Of a stretch of 39,767 bases of DNA, positions 1-8,387 are shown in pieces. The notes below the pieces were generated by a model, which searched no databases, was not told where the DNA came from, and worked only from the letters and a program-made list of their open reading frames with translations. The first letter of the stretch is position 1. Every line of letters begins with the position of its first letter. The stretch is from a phage, in sequence record PV935351.1. One strand, written 5' to 3'. Position numbers and translations under genes: made by a program.

Positions 1-204
1 TCTCACAGTTCAAGAACCTCAAGTCTCCCCCCCTAGGCCCTCTTTCAGTCCAGACCAAAGGCCCTACCCATTACTGCTCCTTGCAGTCACAGCCAGTCTA
101 TCATAAGGTTGGACCGATGGTCAAGACGTTAGGTCGACGATAGGTCTAGGCTATGGCTTAGGGAAGGACGATAGGTAGAGGCTATAGGTCTTCTTTGAGT
201 CTCT
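1..204. repeat. left direct terminal repeat (DTR)
   Basis: Bases 1-204 are identical to 39564-39767 by direct comparison; typical of T7-like genome ends. Confidence 0.95.
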
Positions 205-234
205 ATCTGTATAGTGTTATAGTATAACATTACG

Positions 235-325
235 TCCTACACCTACAGTCTCACTAACCTACAGTCTCACTAACCTACAGTCTCAACCATAAGACACCAA
301 CACCTACAGTCAGAGACCTACGGTT
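235..325. repeat. short direct-repeat array just inside left DTR
   Basis: CCTACAGTCTCACTAA in three tandem copies (242-289, 16-bp period, third copy degenerate), plus CCTACAGTC at 303-311 and CCTACGGTT at 317-325. Confidence 0.8.
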
Positions 326-435
326 AATAGACACAAAGGCTATAGACTTAAGGTCTAAGACATGTTAGTCAAAGACTATATCCTCTTACACCATGGGGCC
401 GACGATAGCTTAATCAATATTATTTAAATAACCTA

Positions 436-466
436 TTGACTATAGGTCCAGACTATGGCCTAATAG
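436..466 (+). promoter_or_regulatory. candidate host sigma70 early promoter (weak match)
   Basis: TTGACT at 436-441 followed about 19 nt later by TAATAG; poor -10 match; lies in the early leader. Confidence 0.3.
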
Positions 467-575
467 CTTCCGTCAACACGACACGGCAACAACCGGATAG
501 TGAAGACGCCGGTCCGGTCCGGTTAAGTAGTCAGCCTGTAAGACATACGAACAACAGGCAACCGACAGAAAGTAG

Positions 576-605
576 TTGACAAGATGTAACGATAAGATGT
601 AAGAT
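576..605 (+). promoter_or_regulatory. candidate host sigma70 early promoter (T7 A3-like)
   Basis: TTGACA (576-581), 18-nt spacer, TAAGAT (600-605); the same -35/-10 hexamers as recalled for T7 A3. Confidence 0.5.
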
Positions 606-728
606 GTACCACATCGAAACAACGGTGATGACCAACACTGAAATGGTCTACCTGAAGTCCTCTGACTGAAGGGAATGCTCTTTAACAATCTGGATAAACT
701 CTTAATGTGCGCCGATAGCGACTAACTA

Positions 729-760
729 CAGGGCCTTTGAGTCTACATCTGAAGGCCCTG
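729..760 (+). other. stem-loop in gene 0.3 leader (possible RNase III site)
   Basis: CAGGGCCTT (729-737) and AAGGCCCTG (752-760) form a perfect 9-bp inverted repeat with a 14-nt loop, about 35 nt upstream of the gene 0.3 start. Confidence 0.5.
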
Positions 761-794
761 ACTGATAGTCACTAACAACTGAGAGGATATAACT

Positions 795-1304
795 ATGGAA
801 CGTAACGCTAACGCATACTATGAGCTGCTGGCTGCAACCGTTGAGCTGTTCAATGAGCGTATTCAGTGCGACGAAATAGCTGAAGGCGATGACTACAGCG
901 ATGCGCTACATGAGGTCGTAGACGGTAATGTTCCGCACTATTACCACGAGATTTTCACGGTGATGGCTGCTGATGGTATTGACCATGAGTTCGAAGACTC
1001 TGGGCTGATGCCTGAGACCAAGGACGTAACGCGTATACTACAAGCTCGCATCTATGAGGCACTGTATAACGATGTGTCTAATAGCTCTGACGTGGTCTGG
1101 TTTGAGGCTGAAGAGGAGGACGAAAAGGCTGAATATTGGGTAGTTGACACTAGAACAGGCGAGATAATTGATACAGCTGTATCAATTTACGAGGCTATTG
1201 CATGTGCAAAAGAACTATATGAGGAAGGTTTTCACATGCAGGTCGAAGACATCAACGATAACGTAGTGTTCGATCCTGAGGCTGCTGAGGAGGACTGCGA
1301 GTGA
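795..1304 (+). CDS. 0.3: Ocr-like DNA-mimic anti-restriction protein with C-terminal extension
   Basis: 169 aa; core [43 protein letters not shown] closely matches recalled T7 Ocr; about 55 extra acidic residues at the C-terminus; GAGG RBS. Confidence 0.85.
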
Positions 1305-1465
1305 TGGTAACTTATGGTCTCTGCCAGCACCACGTCTCCATCGCCAGGCTTATGGTCTTGACCGGGCGATTAACCCACGAGGAGTCTATGCGTCTCCTGA
1401 AGGTGCTCTATGAGCGCCGCAAACGTATGCACGATAGTCTACACGCTGAGGATAAACCACAATGA
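1304..1465 (+). CDS. small early protein, gp0.4-like
   Basis: 53 aa, ATG overlaps the gene 0.3 stop (TGATGG); GAGGAGG RBS; YGL...LLKVLYE pattern resembles recalled T7 gp0.4. Shorter than 60 aa, so absent from the ORF track. Confidence 0.5.
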   Translation: MVTYGLCQHHVSIARLMVLTGRLTHEESMRLLKVLYERRKRMHDSLHAEDKPQ

Positions 1466-1611
1466 AACGATACGCTATACACATTCCGGGATGGTGTTAC
1501 ACAATGACTTGCTACGGATACAACGAGAGAGACGCAAGAGCCCGCTTCCGTGACCAGCAAGGATTCGGTAAACGTCTGCCAAATGGTACGGCTATCTGGG
1601 AGATTGACTAA
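1462..1611 (+). CDS. hypothetical small early protein
   Basis: 49 aa (MKRYAIHIPGWCYTMTCYGYNERDARARF...), ATGA overlap with the upstream ORF, GAGG RBS. Confidence 0.45.
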   Translation: MKRYAIHIPGWCYTMTCYGYNERDARARFRDQQGFGKRLPNGTAIWEID

Positions 1612-1612
1612 C

Positions 1613-1738
1613 ATGTACCAGATAACTTATAGCAGTGAACAGGCGTTCTATGATGGGTGTTACGAGATGATGAAGCGTGGTGCTTGCTTCGTGGCTAATC
1701 ACCATGCGCTAACCATAACACTGACAGGTGGATACTGA
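1613..1738 (+). CDS. hypothetical small early protein
   Basis: 41 aa from ATG 1613 (MYQITYSSEQAFYDGCYEMMKRGACF...), GGGAG RBS; the track ORF 1550-1738 probably starts here. Confidence 0.4.
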   Translation: MYQITYSSEQAFYDGCYEMMKRGACFVANHHALTITLTGGY

Positions 1739-1808
1739 GTGATAGACGAGAGGTCATCTACTGATAGGTGGCCTCAAAGATTACCACTTACATTGATAGG
1801 ATTTAACT

Positions 1809-1913
1809 ATGAGTACTGCAATCATCTGGACCATCTCTGGCTTCGTAGCGTGGGGAATGTTTACTCTAGTCTGCAAACTACCGGTCCTTACTCAACTGTT
1901 ATGGGGCTTATGA
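1809..1913 (+). CDS. hypothetical small hydrophobic peptide
   Basis: 34 aa MSTAIIWTISGFVAWGMFTLVCKLPVLTQLLWGL, one predicted TM helix, AGGA upstream. Confidence 0.3.
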   Translation: MSTAIIWTISGFVAWGMFTLVCKLPVLTQLLWGL

Positions 1914-2113
1914 CTATGATATCTGCACTATTGATAGCCATAGGCTATGGACTTATCGCCTACGTGCTGGTGAGTGACATTAAAAAGGCGCGTAAAGTCT
2001 ACAAATTCAACTATGTACGTCTGGGCCGCTGGACCGTACGTCAACCTAACGGACGATTCATGCGCAACTTAGCGAACGTCTGGGATATAGCAACTATTGG
2101 GAGCAAACTGTAA
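1901..2113 (+). CDS. hypothetical small membrane protein (alternative GTG start at 1739)
   Basis: In-frame ATG at 1901 gives about 70 aa with hydrophobic segment MISALLIAIGYGLIAYVLV; the track's 1739 start is a GTG. Confidence 0.4.
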   Translation: MGLMTMISALLIAIGYGLIAYVLVSDIKKARKVYKFNYVRLGRWTVRQPNGRFMRNLANVWDIATIGSKL

Positions 2114-2505
2114 TGAACAAGTCAAATCGGGTACACGCACTGGACCAAATCATAACGCAACGCACATTCACTGATAAGAACGGCGTAGAGTGGAAGTATG
2201 TTGGAATGGACTCGCGTGGTCGCAACTACTGGGAGAAGACCGGGAGAAAGAGCGCTTATGTGCATCGTCGCTCGTCACACACCGTACGTCAACAGCAGGA
2301 GCGAGAGCGTGTACTTGAGGCACGACTCCGTGCCGAGGGCCATAAGTCTGAGCTGATGTGGCTGGTGTATGGTGGACGCCCAATCACTGACGATGGTAAA
2401 CTTCTGGTCTCAGGCTGGACGGCGAGAGACCAACGGTCAACCATCAAGCACACGACCAAAGGTGACTTCAGTCATCTCCACGCTAACCCACTGATATGCA
2501 AGTGA
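2113..2505 (+). CDS. hypothetical early protein
   Basis: 130 aa, basic; ATG overlaps the upstream stop (TAATG); GGGAG RBS; no motif recognised. Confidence 0.6.
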   Translation: MNKSNRVHALDQIITQRTFTDKNGVEWKYVGMDSRGRNYWEKTGRKSAYVHRRSSHTVRQQQERERVLEARLRAEGHKSELMWLVYGGRPITDDGKLLVSGWTARDQRSTIKHTTKGDFSHLHANPLICK

Positions 2506-2510
2506 TTCTG

Positions 2511-2533
2511 ACTTAACTATCACTATAGGACTC
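2511..2533 (+). promoter_or_regulatory. phage RNAP promoter upstream of the RNAP gene
   Basis: CTTAACTATCACTATAGGA, +1 G at 2528; -8 to -1 (TCACTATA) identical to the T7 promoter. Confidence 0.7.
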
Positions 2534-2602
2534 AAGGTCTAAGACTACAAGTGAAAGACCAAAGAGACTCTAAGTGAAAGACTAATAACAAGGACTTTAA
2601 GT

Positions 2603-5284
2603 ATGAGCGTCATCTCTATTGATAAACACGACTTCTCTGATGTGTCGAACGCCATTGAGCCGTTTAACCTGCTGGCAGACCACTACGGGCAAGACCTTGC
2701 AGTCAAACAGCTTCAGCTTGAGCATGAGGCATACACAGAAGGCGAGCGACGTTTCATCAAAAACCTTGAGCGACAGACTGAGCGCGGGGAACTGGCAGAC
2801 AATCAGGTCGCCAAGCCTTTGATGCAGACTCTGGTGCCTAAGATTGCGCAAGCAGTCAAGGAGTGGCACGAAGGCCAAGACGGGAAGCTGTCAACCTCTC
2901 GTCCTAGCGTAGCGTTCACCATGTTAAGCACCGAAGAGAAGGCCGTCAAGGACCGCTCTCTGCGTATCTCTTGCGAGTCTGCTGCGGTCATCATACTGAA
3001 GGTCATACTCTCCAAGCTGGTAAAGCCTGAAGGGATACCGATTACACCGATGGCCTCAGCGTTAGGTCGCACACTTGAGGACGAAATCCGCTTCGGTCGC
3101 ATCCGTGACAAGGAGAAGGAGCACTTCAAGAAGGCGATAGCTGAGAACCTGAACAAGCGAGCTGGGGCATCCTACAAGAAAGCCTACATGCAAGCGGTAG
3201 AGGCATCCATGCTGGAGCAAGGCCAACTGGAAGATGCGTGGGGGACTTGGAGTCCGACCGAAGCGGTACACGTTGGCATCAAGATGCTAGAGATTGTCAT
3301 CCAGTCCACACAACTGGTCGAGCTTAAGCGTTATGGTGCTGGCAATGCGGCGGCTGACGTTGAGATGGTCCACCTGTCAGACTTCTGGGTCAAGAAGATG
3401 GCACAACGAGGATTCAGCCTTGCGGGTATAGCTCCAGTCTACCAGCCTTGCGTCGTTCCACCTAAGCCGTGGACTGGTGTCGTAGGTGGTGGGTACTGGG
3501 CCAAAGGTCGCAGACCGCTACCCCTGATTCGCTTAGGGTCTAAATCAGCGGTGGCACGTTATGAAGACGTATACATGCCTGAAGTCTATGACGCTGTGAA
3601 TATCATCCAGAATACACCTTGGAAAGTGAACAAGAAGGTACTGGACGTGGTGAACATGGTCGAGAAGTTGAACAACACGCCTATTGATGACATCCCTCAG
3701 ATGGAGCCACTGAAGCCTGAAGACTATGCGGGTGAGACTGAGGAGGAACTCAAGGCATGGAAGAAGGCTGCTGCTGGTATCTATCGCCGCGAGAAGGCCC
3801 GACAGTCACGCAGATTATCACTGAGCTTTATCGTTAACCAAGCAAACAAGTTCTCTCAGTTCAAGGCCATCTGGTTCCCGTACAACATGGATTGGCGAGG
3901 TCGTGTCTACGCTGTCCCGATGTTCAACCCTCAGGGTAACGACATGCAGAAGGGTCTACTGACTCTGGCAGTCGGCAAGCCTATTGGTGCTGACGGTTTC
4001 AAATGGCTGAAGGTCCACGGTGCGAACTGTGCGGGTGTCGATAAAGTCACCTTCGAGGAGCGCATCAAGTGGGTGGAAGACAACCACGAAAACATCATTG
4101 CTGCTGCTAAGGCACCGATGGATAGTATTGAGTGGTGGGGCAAGTTAGACTCTCCGTTCTGTTTCCTCGCGTTCTGCTTCGAGTATGCTGGCGTAATGCA
4201 CCACGGCCTGTCTTACTCCTGCTCGCTGCCGATAGCGTTCGATGGGTCCTGCTCTGGTATTCAGCACTTCAGTGCGATGCTTCGTGACCACATCGGTGGA
4301 CATGCAGTAAACCTGACGCCATCCGGTAAGGTACAAGACATCTACCGCATTGTGTCTGACCGCATTGAGGAGGAGCTTAAAGTCCTGCTGATTACAGGTA
4401 CTGACAACGAGATGGACACTCACGAGGACAAGAAAACTGGTGAGAGTACCGAACGTATCAAGCTGGGGACACGAGAGCTGGCCCGTCAGTGGCTGACATA
4501 CGGTATGTCACGCAAGGTCACTAAGCGTTCAGTCATGACTCTGGCCTATGGGTCGAAAGAGTACGGCTTCGCAGACCAAGTTTATGAGGACATCGTGATG
4601 CCAGCGATTGACTCAGGGTCTGGCGCTATGTTCACCGAGCCTAGCCAAGCGTCTCGCTTCATGGCTAAGATGATTTGGGAAGCTGTGAGTGTGACCGTAG
4701 TTGCTGCGGTTGACGCGATGAAGTGGCTTCAAGGTGCTGCCAAGCTGCTGGCTGCTGAGGTGAAGGACAAGAAGACTGGAGAAATCCTGAAGCCTTGCCT
4801 TCCGGTACACTGGGTAACACCTGATGGTTTCCCGGTCTGGCAGGAATACCGCAAGAAGGATACCACTCGTCTGAACCTGATGTTCTTAGGGTCATTCAAC
4901 CTTCAACCTACGGTCAACAAAGGTATGAAGAAGGAGTTGGATAAGCACAAGCAGGAGTCAGGAATTAGCCCGAACTTCGTCCACTCACAAGATGGTAGCC
5001 ATCTCCGCAAGACTGTAGTCCACACTCACCGCAAGTATGGCGTGATGTCATTCGCAGTGATTCACGATAGCTTCGGGACCATCCCGGCTGACGCTGAGTA
5101 TCTGTTCCGTGGCGTCCGTGAGACAATGGTCGAGACCTACCGCGACAACGATGTGCTGCTTGACTTCTACGAGCAGTTTGAATACCAGCTTCACGAGAGC
5201 CAGCGCGACAAGTTGCCTGAGCTTCCGAAGAAAGGTAAACTAAATATCGAGGACATCTTGTCTTCAGACTTTGCATTCGCTTAA
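2603..5284 (+). CDS. 1: T7-type single-subunit DNA-directed RNA polymerase
   Basis: 893 aa; collinear with recalled T7 RNAP, ending in the shared FAFA terminus and including WFPYNMDWRGRVYA, LPIAFDGSCSGIQHFSAMLRD and HDSFGT. Confidence 0.98.
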   Translation: MSVISIDKHDFSDVSNAIEPFNLLADHYGQDLAVKQLQLEHEAYTEGERRFIKNLERQTERGELADNQVAKPLMQTLVPKIAQAVKEWHEGQDGKLSTSRPSVAFTMLSTEEKAVKDRSLRISCESAAVIILKVILSKLVKPEGIPITPMASALGRTLEDEIRFGRIRDKEKEHFKKAIAENLNKRAGASYKKAYMQAVEASMLEQGQLEDAWGTWSPTEAVHVGIKMLEIVIQSTQLVELKRYGAGNAAADVEMVHLSDFWVKKMAQRGFSLAGIAPVYQPCVVPPKPWTGVVGGGYWAKGRRPLPLIRLGSKSAVARYEDVYMPEVYDAVNIIQNTPWKVNKKVLDVVNMVEKLNNTPIDDIPQMEPLKPEDYAGETEEELKAWKKAAAGIYRREKARQSRRLSLSFIVNQANKFSQFKAIWFPYNMDWRGRVYAVPMFNPQGNDMQKGLLTLAVGKPIGADGFKWLKVHGANCAGVDKVTFEERIKWVEDNHENIIAAAKAPMDSIEWWGKLDSPFCFLAFCFEYAGVMHHGLSYSCSLPIAFDGSCSGIQHFSAMLRDHIGGHAVNLTPSGKVQDIYRIVSDRIEEELKVLLITGTDNEMDTHEDKKTGESTERIKLGTRELARQWLTYGMSRKVTKRSVMTLAYGSKEYGFADQVYEDIVMPAIDSGSGAMFTEPSQASRFMAKMIWEAVSVTVVAAVDAMKWLQGAAKLLAAEVKDKKTGEILKPCLPVHWVTPDGFPVWQEYRKKDTTRLNLMFLGSFNLQPTVNKGMKKELDKHKQESGISPNFVHSQDGSHLRKTVVHTHRKYGVMSFAVIHDSFGTIPADAEYLFRGVRETMVETYRDNDVLLDFYEQFEYQLHESQRDKLPELPKKGKLNIEDILSSDFAFA

Positions 5285-5298
5285 CAGGAGAGAGAGTT

Positions 5299-5514
5299 AT
5301 GAAATTTGCACACAAGCAGGCTGGAGTTAATGGTGGGACTCAAATCGTGACCGTAACAGAACACAACGGAAAGGGTCTGGTGAAGACCACGGTCATTCCT
5401 ACCGAAATGTCAAAGCAGCTTAACGTCCCATTCAAGACCCTCGTCTATCTTGTGGAATCCAGCCACGAGAAATACCTGAAAGACGCAGTGACCAAGCTGG
5501 AGCAGACCAAATGA
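5299..5514 (+). CDS. hypothetical protein
   Basis: 71 aa with a strong RBS (AGGAGAGAG); no motif recognised. Confidence 0.55.
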   Translation: MKFAHKQAGVNGGTQIVTVTEHNGKGLVKTTVIPTEMSKQLNVPFKTLVYLVESSHEKYLKDAVTKLEQTK

Positions 5515-5589
5515 CAGACCTACAGTTACTGGCCTTGTGGCTTGGAGCACTAGCAGTATTCACTTTAATCCAACGCAGAAGAGGTTAAC

Positions 5590-5612
5590 CCTAAACTATC
5601 ACTATAGGATTA
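5590..5612 (+). promoter_or_regulatory. phage RNAP promoter
   Basis: CTAAACTATCACTATAGGA, +1 G at 5607. Confidence 0.8.
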
Positions 5613-5662
5613 GACTCAAGGTCATGACTCAAAGTCGTGGCCTTCATGATTAACCCTAACTC
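5611..5662 (+). ncRNA. conserved structured RNA element, copy A (candidate RNase III site)
   Basis: TAGACTCAAGGTCAT, 11 variable nt, GTGGCCTTCATGATTAACCCTAACT; the same element recurs at 12952 and 36562. Confidence 0.55.
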
Positions 5663-5682
5663 ATTCAATCAGGAGCTACACC

Positions 5683-5862
5683 ATGTATCAGAACACTATC
5701 AACTTCGAGCGAATCCGTGAACGTCAGCAGACTGAAGACTACATTCCGAAGGGACGCAAGCTGAACAAGACCAAGCGTGGCGGCGGTGTCAAGGGTGCTT
5801 TCCGTAACGCTGAAGGCAAAGACTCTATGGTAAACCAAGAGAAGTATTTCGTAGGAGCGTAA
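5683..5862 (+). CDS. 1.1: gp1.1-like small basic protein
   Basis: 59 aa; KGRKLNKTKR matches recalled T7 gp1.1; GGAG RBS. Not in the ORF track (under 60 aa). Confidence 0.7.
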   Translation: MYQNTINFERIRERQQTEDYIPKGRKLNKTKRGGGVKGAFRNAEGKDSMVNQEKYFVGA

Positions 5863-5865
5863 GAC

Positions 5866-6117
5866 ATGAGTAAACGTTGGCTATTCGACGCATCCACGAG
5901 CCAGTGGTCAGCGGTAGGCCGGACTCACCGCGCGATGAGTGAGGCAGGACTTGATGTCCTAATGGATTACTCGCCGTTCCCCGGAAAAATTCTGGTCAGA
6001 GTAATTGAAGCAGATGGTGGGAGGCTTCTGGTCTCCAGAGAATTTACCGAAGATGAAATCTTTAACTGTGAGCAATGGTGCTTACAACAATTGAACGCTT
6101 ATAGGAGCTGGAAATAA
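5866..6117 (+). CDS. 1.2: gp1.2-like protein (T7 gp1.2 inhibits host dGTPase)
   Basis: 83 aa, same size and position as T7 gp1.2, ends ...NAYRSWK (T7 ends ...DWK). Confidence 0.7.
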   Translation: MSKRWLFDASTSQWSAVGRTHRAMSEAGLDVLMDYSPFPGKILVRVIEADGGRLLVSREFTEDEIFNCEQWCLQQLNAYRSWK

Positions 6118-7169
6118 TGACAACGACTATCAAAACTAACCCGCACCGCGCTGTAGATTACTCTGAGTCTGGCGTTAAGAAGGCACTGGAAGCAGCCGGG
6201 TCGCTTGAAGCTGAAGTGAAGTACGATGGCGTCCGGTTGAATCTTCCGGTCTTCCCTACTGGTGAGACCCAATGGTTGAGCCGTGAGTCTAAACCTCTCC
6301 CAGCCCTTAGCTGGTTGAACACTTCCGGTCAGGACATAGGAGCTACCAAAGCGAGCGACTGGCGGTGGTTCCTGAAGCAAGCTGGCTATGAAGGGACTGG
6401 TCTGATGATTGATGGCGAGGTCATGGTGAAAGGGGTTGACTTCAACACGTCTTCGGGCCTCATCCGCACGAAGTATGTCAAGTCTAAAAACTACGACTTC
6501 CACGATGGCGATTGGGACCTCAAGTCCAAGACTACTCAGTTCCGGCTGGACCGAGACCATATCAAGGTGGTCGTCTACGGTGTAGTGGACCTTAACGTCA
6601 TCCTTGACCCGAAAGCCGAAGGTCCTATCCATAGCGTCACACGCCTGAAGGCCGAAGCTATCGTCCCTCTCCTCCAGAAATACTTCCCGGAAATCGACTG
6701 GGTTCTGTCTGAGTCACACACGGTCTATGACCTTGAGTCGCTCAGCTCCCTGTACGAAGAGAAGCGGCTGGAAGGACATGAGGGTCTGGTAGTCAAGGAC
6801 CCGCTTGGTAAATACAAGCGTGGCAAGAAGTCAGGCATGTGGAAAATGAAGCCTGAGGAGACCATCGACGGGACCGTGTGTGGCCTAGTGTGGGGGACTC
6901 CGGGCAAGGCTAACGAAGGTAAGGTGATTGGCTTTGAGGTGCTGCTTGAGGATGGCATGGTGGTTAACGCTTGTGGCCTGACTGAAGAACAGAAGGATGA
7001 GTTTACGGAAGCCTGTAACACTGATACATATATCCTCGGTGAAATCAATCCATACGAAGGCTGGCAGTGTGAAGTCCTTTTCATGGAGAGGTTCCCTGAT
7101 GGCTCACTCCGTCACCCTAGCTTCAAGTGCTGGCGCGGGACGGAAGACAACCCGACCGTTAAGAGTTAA
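6117..7169 (+). CDS. 1.3: ATP-dependent DNA ligase
   Basis: 350 aa; adenylation motif I KYDGVR at residues 35-40; T7 gene 1.3 position. Confidence 0.95.
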   Translation: MTTTIKTNPHRAVDYSESGVKKALEAAGSLEAEVKYDGVRLNLPVFPTGETQWLSRESKPLPALSWLNTSGQDIGATKASDWRWFLKQAGYEGTGLMIDGEVMVKGVDFNTSSGLIRTKYVKSKNYDFHDGDWDLKSKTTQFRLDRDHIKVVVYGVVDLNVILDPKAEGPIHSVTRLKAEAIVPLLQKYFPEIDWVLSESHTVYDLESLSSLYEEKRLEGHEGLVVKDPLGKYKRGKKSGMWKMKPEETIDGTVCGLVWGTPGKANEGKVIGFEVLLEDGMVVNACGLTEEQKDEFTEACNTDTYILGEINPYEGWQCEVLFMERFPDGSLRHPSFKCWRGTEDNPTVKS

Positions 7170-7178
7170 CTAAACGTC

Positions 7179-7212
7179 AACCCAGTGGTCTCCGGACTGC
7201 TGGGTTTCTTTG
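7179..7212 (+). terminator. intrinsic terminator after ligase (TE-like early terminator)
   Basis: CCCAGTGG / CTGCTGGG stem (two G-U pairs) with an 8-nt loop, followed by TTTCTTTG. Confidence 0.65.
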
Positions 7213-7281: not shown

Positions 7282-7542
7282 ATGTTTAAGAACTTAATGT
7301 TCAACCGTTATACCAGTACCTTCCACCTGTCCAACAACCCGTTCGCTTGCATTAAGCGCAACGAGAAGCTGGACTACTTCGGGAAGGTCGTTAAGCTGTC
7401 ACCTACAGTCTACGCTCTGATTACTCAGGGTAAAGCTGAAGAGGCTCGCCAAAAACGTGAGACCAACGTACCTGTAGTCTACACCAAGTGGCCTCGCGTT
7501 CGTCTGTTTATTGAGTTCGTGAAGGAGGTGATCAATGGTTAA
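7282..7542 (+). CDS. hypothetical protein (gene 1.6 position)
   Basis: 86 aa; AAGGAGG RBS. Confidence 0.65.
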   Translation: MFKNLMFNRYTSTFHLSNNPFACIKRNEKLDYFGKVVKLSPTVYALITQGKAEEARQKRETNVPVVYTKWPRVRLFIEFVKEVING

Positions 7543-7975
7543 GGTGGGGGATACAGTTAAATATGTTGGACCAATTGGAGCCCACATGGGACGCTCCTGT
7601 GGCAAGGTGATAATGGTTAAGAATGAGCATGTGGCTGTTGTTAAGTGGCCCCATTCATCTGAACCACTCACTCACTCCATTAGTTCCTTAAGTATTACCA
7701 AGCAGGCGCAGTCCGAGCCGATAACCATAGGTCAGGAAGATAGCGTCCGTAAGCCATCTCACTATCAGGTCTTTGACGGTGTGGAATCCATTGAGATTAT
7801 CGCTCGGTCAATGACTGTCAGCGAGTTCCGTGGCTTCTGCATGGGTAACGTCCTTAAGTATCGACTCCGGGCTGGTAAGAAGTCCGAGCTGGCTACTATG
7901 GAGAAGGACCTAAACAAAGCAGCCTTCTACCAGGAGCTGTTCGACCTGCATAAAGGTAAGTGTTATGACGTCTAG
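7535..7975 (+). CDS. 1.7: gp1.7-like protein (nucleotide kinase family, C-terminal homology only)
   Basis: 146 aa; the C-terminal 80 aa (KPSHYQVFDGVESIEIIARSMTV...LKYRLRAGKKSELA...KCY) match recalled T7 gp1.7; the N-terminal 65 aa differ and lack the Cys-rich motifs. Confidence 0.75.
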   Translation: MVKVGDTVKYVGPIGAHMGRSCGKVIMVKNEHVAVVKWPHSSEPLTHSISSLSITKQAQSEPITIGQEDSVRKPSHYQVFDGVESIEIIARSMTVSEFRGFCMGNVLKYRLRAGKKSELATMEKDLNKAAFYQELFDLHKGKCYDV

Positions 7976-8387
7976 TGATTGCATTGACCATGACTACAAC
8001 TGCAAGAGCTACGCAAATGTGTATTCCAAAGCTCATGGTAGAAACTTTGGTCTTCACCGAATAGTTCTAGCGGAGAAGTTAGGAGTCGATGTGGCTGAAA
8101 TGAAGGGAGTAGCGATGCACTCTTGTGACAATAAGAGATGTGTCAATCCTGAACACTTACAGTTAGGGACCCAGAGTCAGAACGTACTGGATGCACACTC
8201 AAGAGGACTGGTAAACGTGGTGTCTGGAGAAAAGCACCCAATGATCAAGCTCACAGACGAGCAGATTGCATATGTTCTGGGTAGTACGCTAGGCGCGAGA
8301 GCGATTGGCAGAGAGCTGGGAGTTTCACATTCGTTAATAAGCAGGTTGAGAAATGGAAAAGCAAGAGCTTCCCAGCGAGTGGGCTGA
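7965..8387 (+). CDS. HNH homing endonuclease
   Basis: 140 aa; HNH core HSCDNKRCVNPEHLQLGTQSQN; C-terminal HTH-like segment; AT-richer with AGA/AGG codons. Confidence 0.8.
   Translation: MTSSDCIDHDYNCKSYANVYSKAHGRNFGLHRIVLAEKLGVDVAEMKGVAMHSCDNKRCVNPEHLQLGTQSQNVLDAHSRGLVNVVSGEKHPMIKLTDEQIAYVLGSTLGARAIGRELGVSHSLISRLRNGKARASQRVG

Follow-up and report, generated by a model that had tools for sequence, protein, structure and literature searches.

In sequence record PV935351.1, a stretch of 39,767 nucleotides (nt) of phage DNA that is here called the window, the RNA polymerase gene (gene 1) is followed by two short open reading frames (ORFs) of 71 and 25 codons, ORF71 and ORF25, which are the subject of this report. 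The window derives from a Kayfunavirus, a K1F-like relative of T7 within the subfamily Studiervirinae. The region around 5299-5514 is matched at 80-99% nucleotide identity by 217 phage genomes, the great majority of them Kayfunaviruses of Escherichia, Salmonella and Enterobacter. Judged by the conservation of their sequences, ORF71 and ORF25 are both genuine protein-coding genes, and ORF25 encodes a conserved, unannotated and predicted membrane microprotein that is plausibly a product of gene fission. The features of the locus are as follows.

2603..5284, + strand: gene 1, T7-type single-subunit RNA polymerase (RNAP), 893 amino acids (ORF list; RNA polymerase in the annotation of relatives)
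5286..5294, + strand: Shine-Dalgarno region AGGAGAGAG of ORF71 (from the sequence; AGGAG core 8 nt before the ATG at 5299)
5299..5514, + strand: ORF71, the K1F gene 1.1, PHROG 8082 (71 sense codons, stop TGA at 5512-5514)
5499..5502, + strand: GGAG, 8 nt 5′ of the ORF25 ATG and inside the end of ORF71 (from the sequence)
5511..5588, + strand: ORF25, MTDLQLLALWLGALAVFTLIQRRRG (ATG at 5511, stop TAA at 5586-5588)
5590..5612, + strand: phage RNA polymerase promoter CCTAAACTATCACTATAGGATTA (positions -17 to +6, +1 = G5607)
5618..5644, + strand: candidate RNase III hairpin of 12 bp (fold -21.5 kcal/mol, z -2.5)
5683..5862, + strand: T7 gene 1.1 homologue, 59 amino acids, "1.15" in K1F (PF08200, E 1e-10; phrog_4383)

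Gene 1, with its TAA stop at 5282-5284, is the upstream cistron of a transcription unit shared with ORF71 and ORF25. Its stop is separated from the start of ORF71 by 14 nt, the stop of ORF71 and the start of ORF25 overlap as ATGA, and ORF25 ends 1 nt short of the promoter. The early neighbours of ORF71 also include an ocr-like gene and, beyond the gene 1.1 homologue (5683-5862), a dGTPase-inhibitor homologue and then ligase. An earlier note on this DNA had placed a 71-codon ORF at 5299-5514 directly after the polymerase gene, which is exactly what the sequence holds, and had stated that T7 lacks an ORF at this position. The statement is correct, since gene 1 is followed by the next promoter after 26 nt in T7 and 12 nt in T3, with no ORF in either. 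The 25-codon ORF that the note gave as 5511-5586 has the start and the length described but ends at 5588 with its stop codon, or at 5585 without it; it does precede the gene 1.1 promoter (5590-5612), and the PF08200 gene comes next. The ribosome-binding site described as strong, AGGAGAGAG, is present, but its strength is only average: the Shine-Dalgarno duplex of ORF71 with the anti-Shine-Dalgarno sequence is worth -7.4 kcal/mol, compared with -5 to -13 kcal/mol for neighbouring genes, and the site is ordinary for this genome and not outstanding. Relatives carry AGGAG or AAGGAGG at the equivalent position before their ORF71 homologues. The corresponding duplex of ORF25 is -5.6 kcal/mol, akin to those of the RNAP and ocr-like genes.

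Conservation of ORF25 and ORF71

ORF25 is predicted to form a single transmembrane helix (residues 4-20; Kyte-Doolittle mean of 2.2 over these 17 residues) and ends in a basic QRRRG tail. Its DNA is found in 222 phage records, and the frame is intact at every locus examined, namely the 30 loci first fetched, four divergent metagenomic contigs and the copies from IMG/VR; a fifth divergent contig ends too near ORF25 to show it. Nucleotide changes fall mainly at third codon positions, and the ratio of non-synonymous to synonymous polymorphism (pN/pS) is 0.33 in frame versus 1.27 and 0.91 out of frame. The ratio is 0.22 among genomes without a gene for the gp1.05 protein discussed below (12 distinct sequences) and 0.27 among genomes with one (15 sequences). 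The frame had been put forward as a possible hydrophobic ORF, and the pN/pS of 0.22-0.33 and the upkeep of the frame everywhere examined mark it as real.

The more divergent copies are particularly informative. In locus L031, where the upstream ORF is only about 35% identical to ORF71, ORF25 has accumulated 17 nucleotide changes in codons 2-20, none of them at a second position, and 24 of its 25 residues are identical. In Citrobacter phage CR8 (genus Caroctavirus) there are 16 changes, which again spare the second positions and leave 22 of 25 residues identical. Despite sequence change, distant copies are alike in length, hydrophobic core and QRRRG end; divergent examples are MSDSLWLVIWLALLVVYIIRQRRRG (Kc166A) and MTQLTLLVIWLAVLAVVIISQRRRG (L035), while the copy in L034, VTDNQLWLTLWSAFLITFIVFQRRRG, has 26 residues and a GTG start, which is also the start codon in L015 among the 30 loci first fetched. 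When random mutation was simulated at equal density, an open frame of equal hydrophobicity survived in 0.01-0.3% of trials for Kc166A and L035, the two most divergent copies tested, and in 2-8% of trials for closer copies. By this pattern of substitution, ORF25 is a genuine, separately selected and unannotated gene.

The peptide also occurs without an intact ORF71. In CR8 it is encoded behind an unrelated 45-codon ORF with overlapping stop and start; this ORF (1068-1205 of locus L039) has no PHROG match, occupies the position of ORF71 and overlaps the start of the ORF25 homologue as TAATGA. In Escherichia phage Penshu1 (MK903281; L004 1598-1813) the ORF71 homologue carries a stop codon (Q15*, CAA to TAA) and ORF25 is intact; the Penshu1 record annotates a 55-amino-acid product from an internal start of the interrupted gene. 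The view that ORF71 and ORF25 form an obligate pair is weakened by these two cases. The Penshu1 allele also suggests that ORF71 is accessory and dispensable in the laboratory rather than essential, unless it reflects a sequencing error.

ORF25 is annotated in none of the approximately 15 Kayfunavirus GenBank records inspected, and its length of 78 nt is below the usual thresholds of gene callers. In at least one record (MZ234022.1, L038), a 38-codon GTG ORF in the wrong frame that spans the promoter and the hairpin (446-562, equivalent to 5537-5653 of the window) is annotated as a coding sequence, which is probably a mis-annotation, with the real ORF25 left unannotated. A tblastn search of the phage collection with the ORF25 peptide was empty, probably owing to low-complexity filtering or the shortness of the query, and a degenerate DNA pattern of the ORF25 start and tail recovered from IMG/VR only Kayfunavirus and CR8 copies plus out-of-frame chance matches. 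Several other identities for the segment were considered and rejected. The predicted fold of 5480-5600 is no better than that of shuffled sequences (z +1.09), which argues against an RNA element in place of a coding sequence, and an Rfam search over 5000-6200 returned nothing at E up to 1. A -1 frameshift fusion of ORF71 and ORF25 lacks a slippery heptamer in the sequence. A holin or spanin lysis peptide would be expected in a late lysis cassette, whereas ORF25 is early, lying between gene 1 and gene 1.1 and upstream of ligase.

With regard to ORF71, the gene is an already catalogued hypothetical gene and is not new as such. It matches phrog_8082 at E 6.2e-42 (residues 1-66 to profile positions 1-66 of 66) and is 91.5% identical over 71 amino acids to the K1F protein CAJ29348, 'gp1.1'. 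The K1F name is positional only: ORF71 has no Pfam match, PF08200 (T7 gene 1.1) included, the next gene (5683-5862) matches PF08200 at 42.3 bits (cutoff 21), and the ORF71 family is unrelated to T7 gene 1.1. The product has a mass of 7.9 kDa and an isoelectric point (pI) of 9.5, within a range of 9.5-10.3 for family members. Searches of Pfam, NCBIfam, PADLOC and the PDB sequence profiles returned nothing for either ORF (0 hits at E up to 10 for ORF71 in the PDB search), and an exact look-up in a collection of 15 billion sequences contained neither protein. The searched literature, which did not include the K1F genome paper, contained no discussion of the function of K1F gp1.1.

ORF71 was detected by tblastn in 220 phage records, and the DNA encoding the RNAP C-terminus, used as a marker for the same phage group, in 219; ORF71 is thus a core gene of the genus. 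The homologue lies directly after gene 1 in K1F, pO2, LS3, vB_EcoP_F, ST34, Kc166A, L032 and L034, and in some relatives one extra ORF is intercalated. An extra ORF of 76 codons (phrog_28104, function unknown) was seen in L002, L007, L040 (EcoDS1), L077 and L087, and one of 86 codons between gene 1 and the ORF71 homologue of L034; the interval between genes 1 and 1.1 is a hot spot for small accessory genes. The family comprises a 71-residue class, a 66-residue class that differs in the C-terminal helix, and divergent copies of 39-59% identity, and the frame is kept down to about 35-45% identity. An exhaustive hidden Markov model (HMM) search of 1.84 billion representative proteins gave only 15 hits to ORF71. 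The genuine hits are all phage proteins of 39-77 residues, several of them truncated, and in each of the five contigs looked up the gene lies just 3′ of the RNA polymerase gene, in one case behind an extra small ORF. Long hits (P0134, P0137 and P0138, the best of them at E 4e-10) are repeat proteins of the Big_2, cadherin and SLH types, and were set aside as non-homologous because the match is limited to a repeated beta-hairpin motif (G..VTVT...GKG...V.V.P). In these searches there are no detectable relatives of ORF71 outside Kayfunavirus-like phages.

The pN/pS of ORF71 is 0.29 in frame versus 1.3 and 1.8 in the other frames (codons 2-46 of 27 distinct sequences), a pattern of purifying selection. 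The earlier note had proposed a genuine extra gene that would fall if its frame were not conserved in relatives; with the frame kept in about 220 records at this pN/pS, the proposal holds. Conservation and pN/pS together led us to reject a spurious ORF for ORF71 and for ORF25 alike.

ORF25 and gp1.05-type proteins

Many Kayfunaviruses have an ORF of 130-164 codons that begins 4-8 nt after ORF25 and carries PF25755, the family of the T3 gene 1.05 protein. For comparison, 80 regions downstream of the RNAP gene were fetched from IMG/VR. The gene that first follows the polymerase in other T7-like genera encodes a single protein of 163-187 amino acids (phrog_6440) with an N-terminal membrane helix (e.g. 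MTYSIVVTILLIIVTALF...), a coiled coil and the PF25755 Phage_T3_1_05 domain, and T3 retains only a gp1.05 domain of 90 amino acids. Loci with the long gp1.05 form in IMG/VR (L110 and L115-L148) have the gene about 80-160 nt after the RNAP stop. The 156-residue gp1.05 of Kayfunavirus aligns to residues ~52-183 of the long form (1e-13) and is without the membrane helix.

In long gp1.05 forms the N-terminal helix thus occupies the place that ORF25 holds before the coiled-coil/PF25755 module in Kayfunavirus relatives, where a hydrophobic helix and basic residues stand right before that module. The sizes are similar, a long form of 186 residues comparing with 25 + 156 for ORF25 and the Kayfunavirus gp1.05, and both ORF25 and the long forms start with MT, continue with about 17-20 hydrophobic residues and then have basic residues. 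They differ in that the long forms are one chain, whereas ORF25 is a separate ORF, divided from gp1.05 by a stop codon and in a variable frame relative to it; ORF25 also lies upstream, not downstream, of the local phage promoter, unlike the long forms. At the level of sequence the resemblance consists of the MT(Y) start and a loose A-[VL]-F-x-x-[IA]-x-R pattern, in a segment too short and hydrophobic for statistics. A programmed frameshift or read-through from ORF25 into gp1.05 was also considered: a +1 shift would be in frame with a 4-nt spacer, but in relatives 4, 5 or 6 nt separate the ORF25 stop from the gp1.05 ATG, which excludes a conserved recoding fusion. The simplest reading of these architectures, and the one that we infer, is that ORF25 descends from the membrane anchor of a gp1.05-type protein, from which it became detached.

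The ORF list and a comparison of the junction show no PF25755 gene in the window. The presence of gp1.05 is polymorphic within Kayfunavirus, the gene being found in L014, L030, L010 and others. The junction of the window, GAGGTTAACCCTA joined to AACTATCAC within 5586-5612, is what would remain if gp1.05 had been excised between the ACCCTA repeats found on either side of it in L014 and L030; the loss of gp1.05 looks like a clean deletion between ACCCTA microhomologies. The constraint on ORF25 is equal in genomes without and with gp1.05, which suggests an independent role for ORF25.

Predicted fold, expression and possible roles

An AlphaFold2 model of ORF71, built from a 23-sequence alignment, has a mean predicted local distance difference test score (pLDDT) of 93.9. 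The model contains three strands (residues 3-10, 13-22 and 25-34) and two helices, one short (37-41) and one long (45-69), and a family member of 42% identity is predicted to have the same topology (pLDDT 92.3). According to these models, ORF71 would be a small, basic, soluble protein in which a three-stranded sheet is joined to a long amphipathic helix, a confidently predicted orphan fold. The earlier note had given the function as unknown and had pointed to homology and structure prediction; the former led to PHROG 8082, itself of unknown function, and the latter to no significant match among solved structures, Foldseek searches of the PDB with both family models returning nothing below E 0.6. 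In a viral structure library the ORF71 family itself is the sole significant match; the lower ranks hold weak analogues, small phage proteins that are uncharacterised and in several cases presumably come from T7-like phages. The only whole-length PDB matches with a template-modelling (TM) score of at least 0.5 in both searches are two crystal forms of Rv1738, 4wsp and 4wpy (TMq 0.55-0.58 and TMt 0.43-0.51 for the two models; non-significant E of 1.3-1.6, probability 0.54-0.60), followed by hibernation factors with TM scores of about 0.46-0.48. A double-stranded RNA-binding domain was rejected: it has an alpha1-beta1-beta2-beta3-alpha2 topology, and the ORF71 model opens with strand 3-10 and has no N-terminal helix; matches to such domains are of partial coverage with E above 1. 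Foldseek matches to XLF/XRCC4, RadD and ribosomal proteins were discarded as partial or with a root-mean-square deviation above 13 Å.

The promoter at 5590-5612 is the equivalent of T7 phi1.1A and T3 phi1.1, as promoters are annotated at the corresponding position in the T7 and T3 records. Exact copies of its core, ACTATCACTATAGG, number 8 in the window, and allowing up to 2 mismatches raises this to 10; at up to 3 mismatches there are 14 matches versus 3.4 expected by chance. The T3 record annotates R1.1 directly after phi1.1, and the hairpin at 5618-5644, which sits at the 5′ end of the promoter transcript, is in the same place; by this analogy RNase III may cut here as at R1.1 of T7 and T3, and the hairpin may be the 3′ boundary of the message for gene 1, ORF71 and ORF25. 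Inspection of the sequence between ORF71 and ORF25 revealed neither a terminator nor a processing signal. An exact copy of the promoter core was also observed at 2516-2529, about 75 nt 5′ of the RNA polymerase gene, so that the phage polymerase may also transcribe gene 1, ORF71 and ORF25; the 5′ leader downstream of this copy has no significant structure (z -0.26).

The explanation that we favour for the locus as a whole, with a probability of roughly 0.55, is that it holds two genuine genes on one early gene 1 message, ORF25 being a detached anchor and ORF71 a binder of a host macromolecule. Both would be translated early in infection from this message, with translation of ORF25 coupled to that of ORF71 by termination-reinitiation assisted by the GGAG 8 nt upstream. 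The ORF25 peptide would insert in the inner membrane with its short N-terminus outside and the QRRRG tail in the cytoplasm. Since selection on ORF25 continues in genomes without gp1.05, it may have an independent action at the membrane, such as exclusion or interference with a membrane-bound host factor. The most speculative part of the scheme is that ORF71 would bind and neutralise a host macromolecule early in infection, as do nearly all characterised T7 class I small proteins. RNA or the ribosome, bound by an Rv1738/HPF-like homodimer, is the target class that we prefer and the most specific lead, though a doubtful one; the odds for a host protein or a defence factor are no lower, if still less than even. 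The combined proposal, in which ORF25 is an inner-membrane microprotein from gp1.05 fission with its own function (possibly superinfection exclusion or interference with a membrane-bound host factor), selected for even where the gp1.05 body was deleted and retained in a second genus, and ORF71 is an Rv1738/HPF-like dimer that silences or re-programmes host ribosomes in a phage group without an early ORF of sufficient size for a T7 gp0.7-type kinase, is improbable as a conjunction.

Several observations weigh against this explanation or its parts. Homology of ORF25 to the long-form helix is beyond proof from 25 hydrophobic residues, the case being made from position and architecture only. The codons of the QRRRG tail, AGAAGAGG, double as the ribosome-binding site of gp1.05, and conservation of the tail is perhaps partly at the nucleotide level. 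Frequent recombination in the genus could bring an intact ORF25 into gp1.05-less genomes without selection there, and the stop codon of Penshu1 could be a sequencing error. The likeness of ORF71 to Rv1738 and HPF is statistically insignificant (Foldseek E 1.3-1.6), and it has no counterpart in sequence, the profile search of PDB sequences being empty.

Among the rival explanations, the one that we regard as a real if less than even contender is that ORF71 inhibits a host protein or an anti-phage defence as a stoichiometric binder in the manner of T7 Ocr, gp0.4, gp1.2, gp2, gp5.7 and gp5.9, instead of binding RNA or the ribosome. Most of the characterised T7 class I and II small proteins act as such inhibitors, and ORF71 lies in the early accessory region between the ocr-like gene and the dGTPase inhibitor. 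A family confined to one genus and its close kin (the 15 hits among 1.84 billion representatives), a C-terminal helix that falls into distinct allelic classes (71-residue, 66-residue and divergent) as if under an arms race, and a natural nonsense allele in Penshu1 are all in keeping with this role. Sequence and structure searches, however, found no similarity to known anti-defence or inhibitor proteins, the DNA mimics Ocr and gp5.9 are acidic whereas ORF71 is basic, and the rather strong conservation of its N-terminal two thirds is atypical for arms-race genes. A role of ORF71 in binding DNA, either at the adjacent promoter and primary-origin region or as an antagonist or mimic of a nucleoid protein, is very unlikely. 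The basic pI of 9.5-10.3 would suit it, as would the position next to the region of the primary replication origin in the T3 record; the primary origin of T7 lies in the same region. Its weak structural neighbours include a phage protein annotated as Lsr2 and double-stranded RNA-binding folds, but the structural matches are far from significant, the latter fold needs the N-terminal helix that the ORF71 model lacks, and Pfam, NCBIfam and PDB profile searches detected no DNA-binding motif or family.

For ORF25 the alternative is that it is non-functional here: it would be left over from a split gp1.05, or its conservation would stem from signals at the nucleotide level, whether the ribosome-binding site of gp1.05, the stretch that leads into the promoter or a recombination joint. 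The window has no gp1.05 body, the tail codons contain AGAAGAGG, which is the Shine-Dalgarno sequence for gp1.05 in relatives, ORF25 stops 1 nt short of the promoter, the inspected public records leave it unannotated, and L006 carries a charged change, A8D. Against these stand the third-position bias and the pN/pS of 0.22-0.33, which span the whole hydrophobic core and reach beyond the tail, the equal constraint with and without gp1.05, the retention of ORF25 in CR8 without ORF71 or gp1.05, the lack of RNA structure (z +1.09) and the intact frame at every inspected locus. We consider a non-functional ORF25 improbable, and a gene for a detached anchor is the reading that we retain.

For ORF71, the novelty lies in the confidently predicted orphan fold, the genus-wide distribution and a testable lead, that of a basic dimer of the Rv1738/HPF type. 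Of the two genes, ORF25 is less well known and of greater interest, a strongly conserved 78-nt coding sequence that escapes gene callers and is carried by about 220 records, several of these phages having been proposed for therapy. If the proposed origin is right, ORF25 would be a clean natural example of a membrane anchor that was separated from its protein body and then retained alone, and a simple system for the early-infection role of a bare phage transmembrane peptide and for the membrane role of the gp1.05 family.

Neighbouring features and comparison with known systems

Other features of the early region were noted in passing. Between the hairpin and gene 1.1, at 5648-5673, is a degenerate second promoter upstream half, TTAACCCTAACTCATTCAATCAGGAG, which recalls the phi1.1A/phi1.1B pair of T7 but is without the CACTATAGG core. 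A terminator-like hairpin followed by TTTCTTTG lies at 7178-7212, just after the ligase stop and at the position of the early terminator TE of T7 and T3. At least four or five alleles that look unrelated occupy the gene 1.2 slot, at 5866-6117 of the window and at the equivalent position in L005-L030. The allele of the window, MSKRWLFDAS..., encodes 83 amino acids and is a phrog_6515 dGTPase inhibitor, and others begin MGRLYSGNLNAF... (87 amino acids), MGMFSRAHSGNL... (95), MNHYELKDFAK... (86-91) and MFEGSLTDQMHL... (75). Between a nucleotide-kinase-like gene (7535-7975) and the homologue of the gp2 RNAP inhibitor is a 140-codon HNH endonuclease ORF (7965-8387; phrog_59), which is probably a homing endonuclease insertion. 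Upstream of gene 1 (window 1-2600) no ORF exceeds 170 codons; the ocr-like gene at 795-1304 is followed by several small ORFs without a recognised function. The T7 gp0.7 protein kinase has about 359 amino acids, and a kinase of this type is apparently not encoded in the early region of the window.

The closest known relatives of ORF71 are K1F gp1.1, PHROG 8082 and gp1.1 of Cronobacter phage Dev2, which are of the same family and have the same position after gene 1; between ORF71 and K1F gp1.1 there is no difference of substance, the family being one without assigned function. In structure, the modelled ORF71 protomer resembles Mycobacterium tuberculosis Rv1738 and HPF/RaiA, which likewise have a long helix after a three-stranded antiparallel sheet. 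Rv1738 forms a homodimer, each protomer consisting of three strands and a long helix, and is hibernation-factor-like with a basic belt (PMC12928254); both Rv1738 (PMC12928254) and ORF71 are small and basic. The ORF71 model differs in its extra short helix (37-41), and the two have no sequence similarity; the likeness of the model to Rv1738 is thus a resemblance and a lead, and not membership or a result.

ORF25 is comparable to the type I toxins TisB and ShoB and the regulators AcrZ and MgtS, which are also peptides of about 25 residues with a single hydrophobic helix and a charge at one end. The match to type I toxin-like membrane peptides is in size and hydrophobicity only. ORF25 has no antisense RNA or toxin context and is located in the early operon of a lytic phage, where its translation is probably coupled to that of the gene before it. 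With regard to its setting, ORF71 can be compared with the class I takeover proteins of T7 (gp0.4, gp1.2, gp2 and others). It has no sequence or fold relationship to these proteins, and homologues of gp1.2 and gp2 are encoded separately within the window, but like them it is early, accessory, shorter than 100 amino acids and co-transcribed with gene 1.

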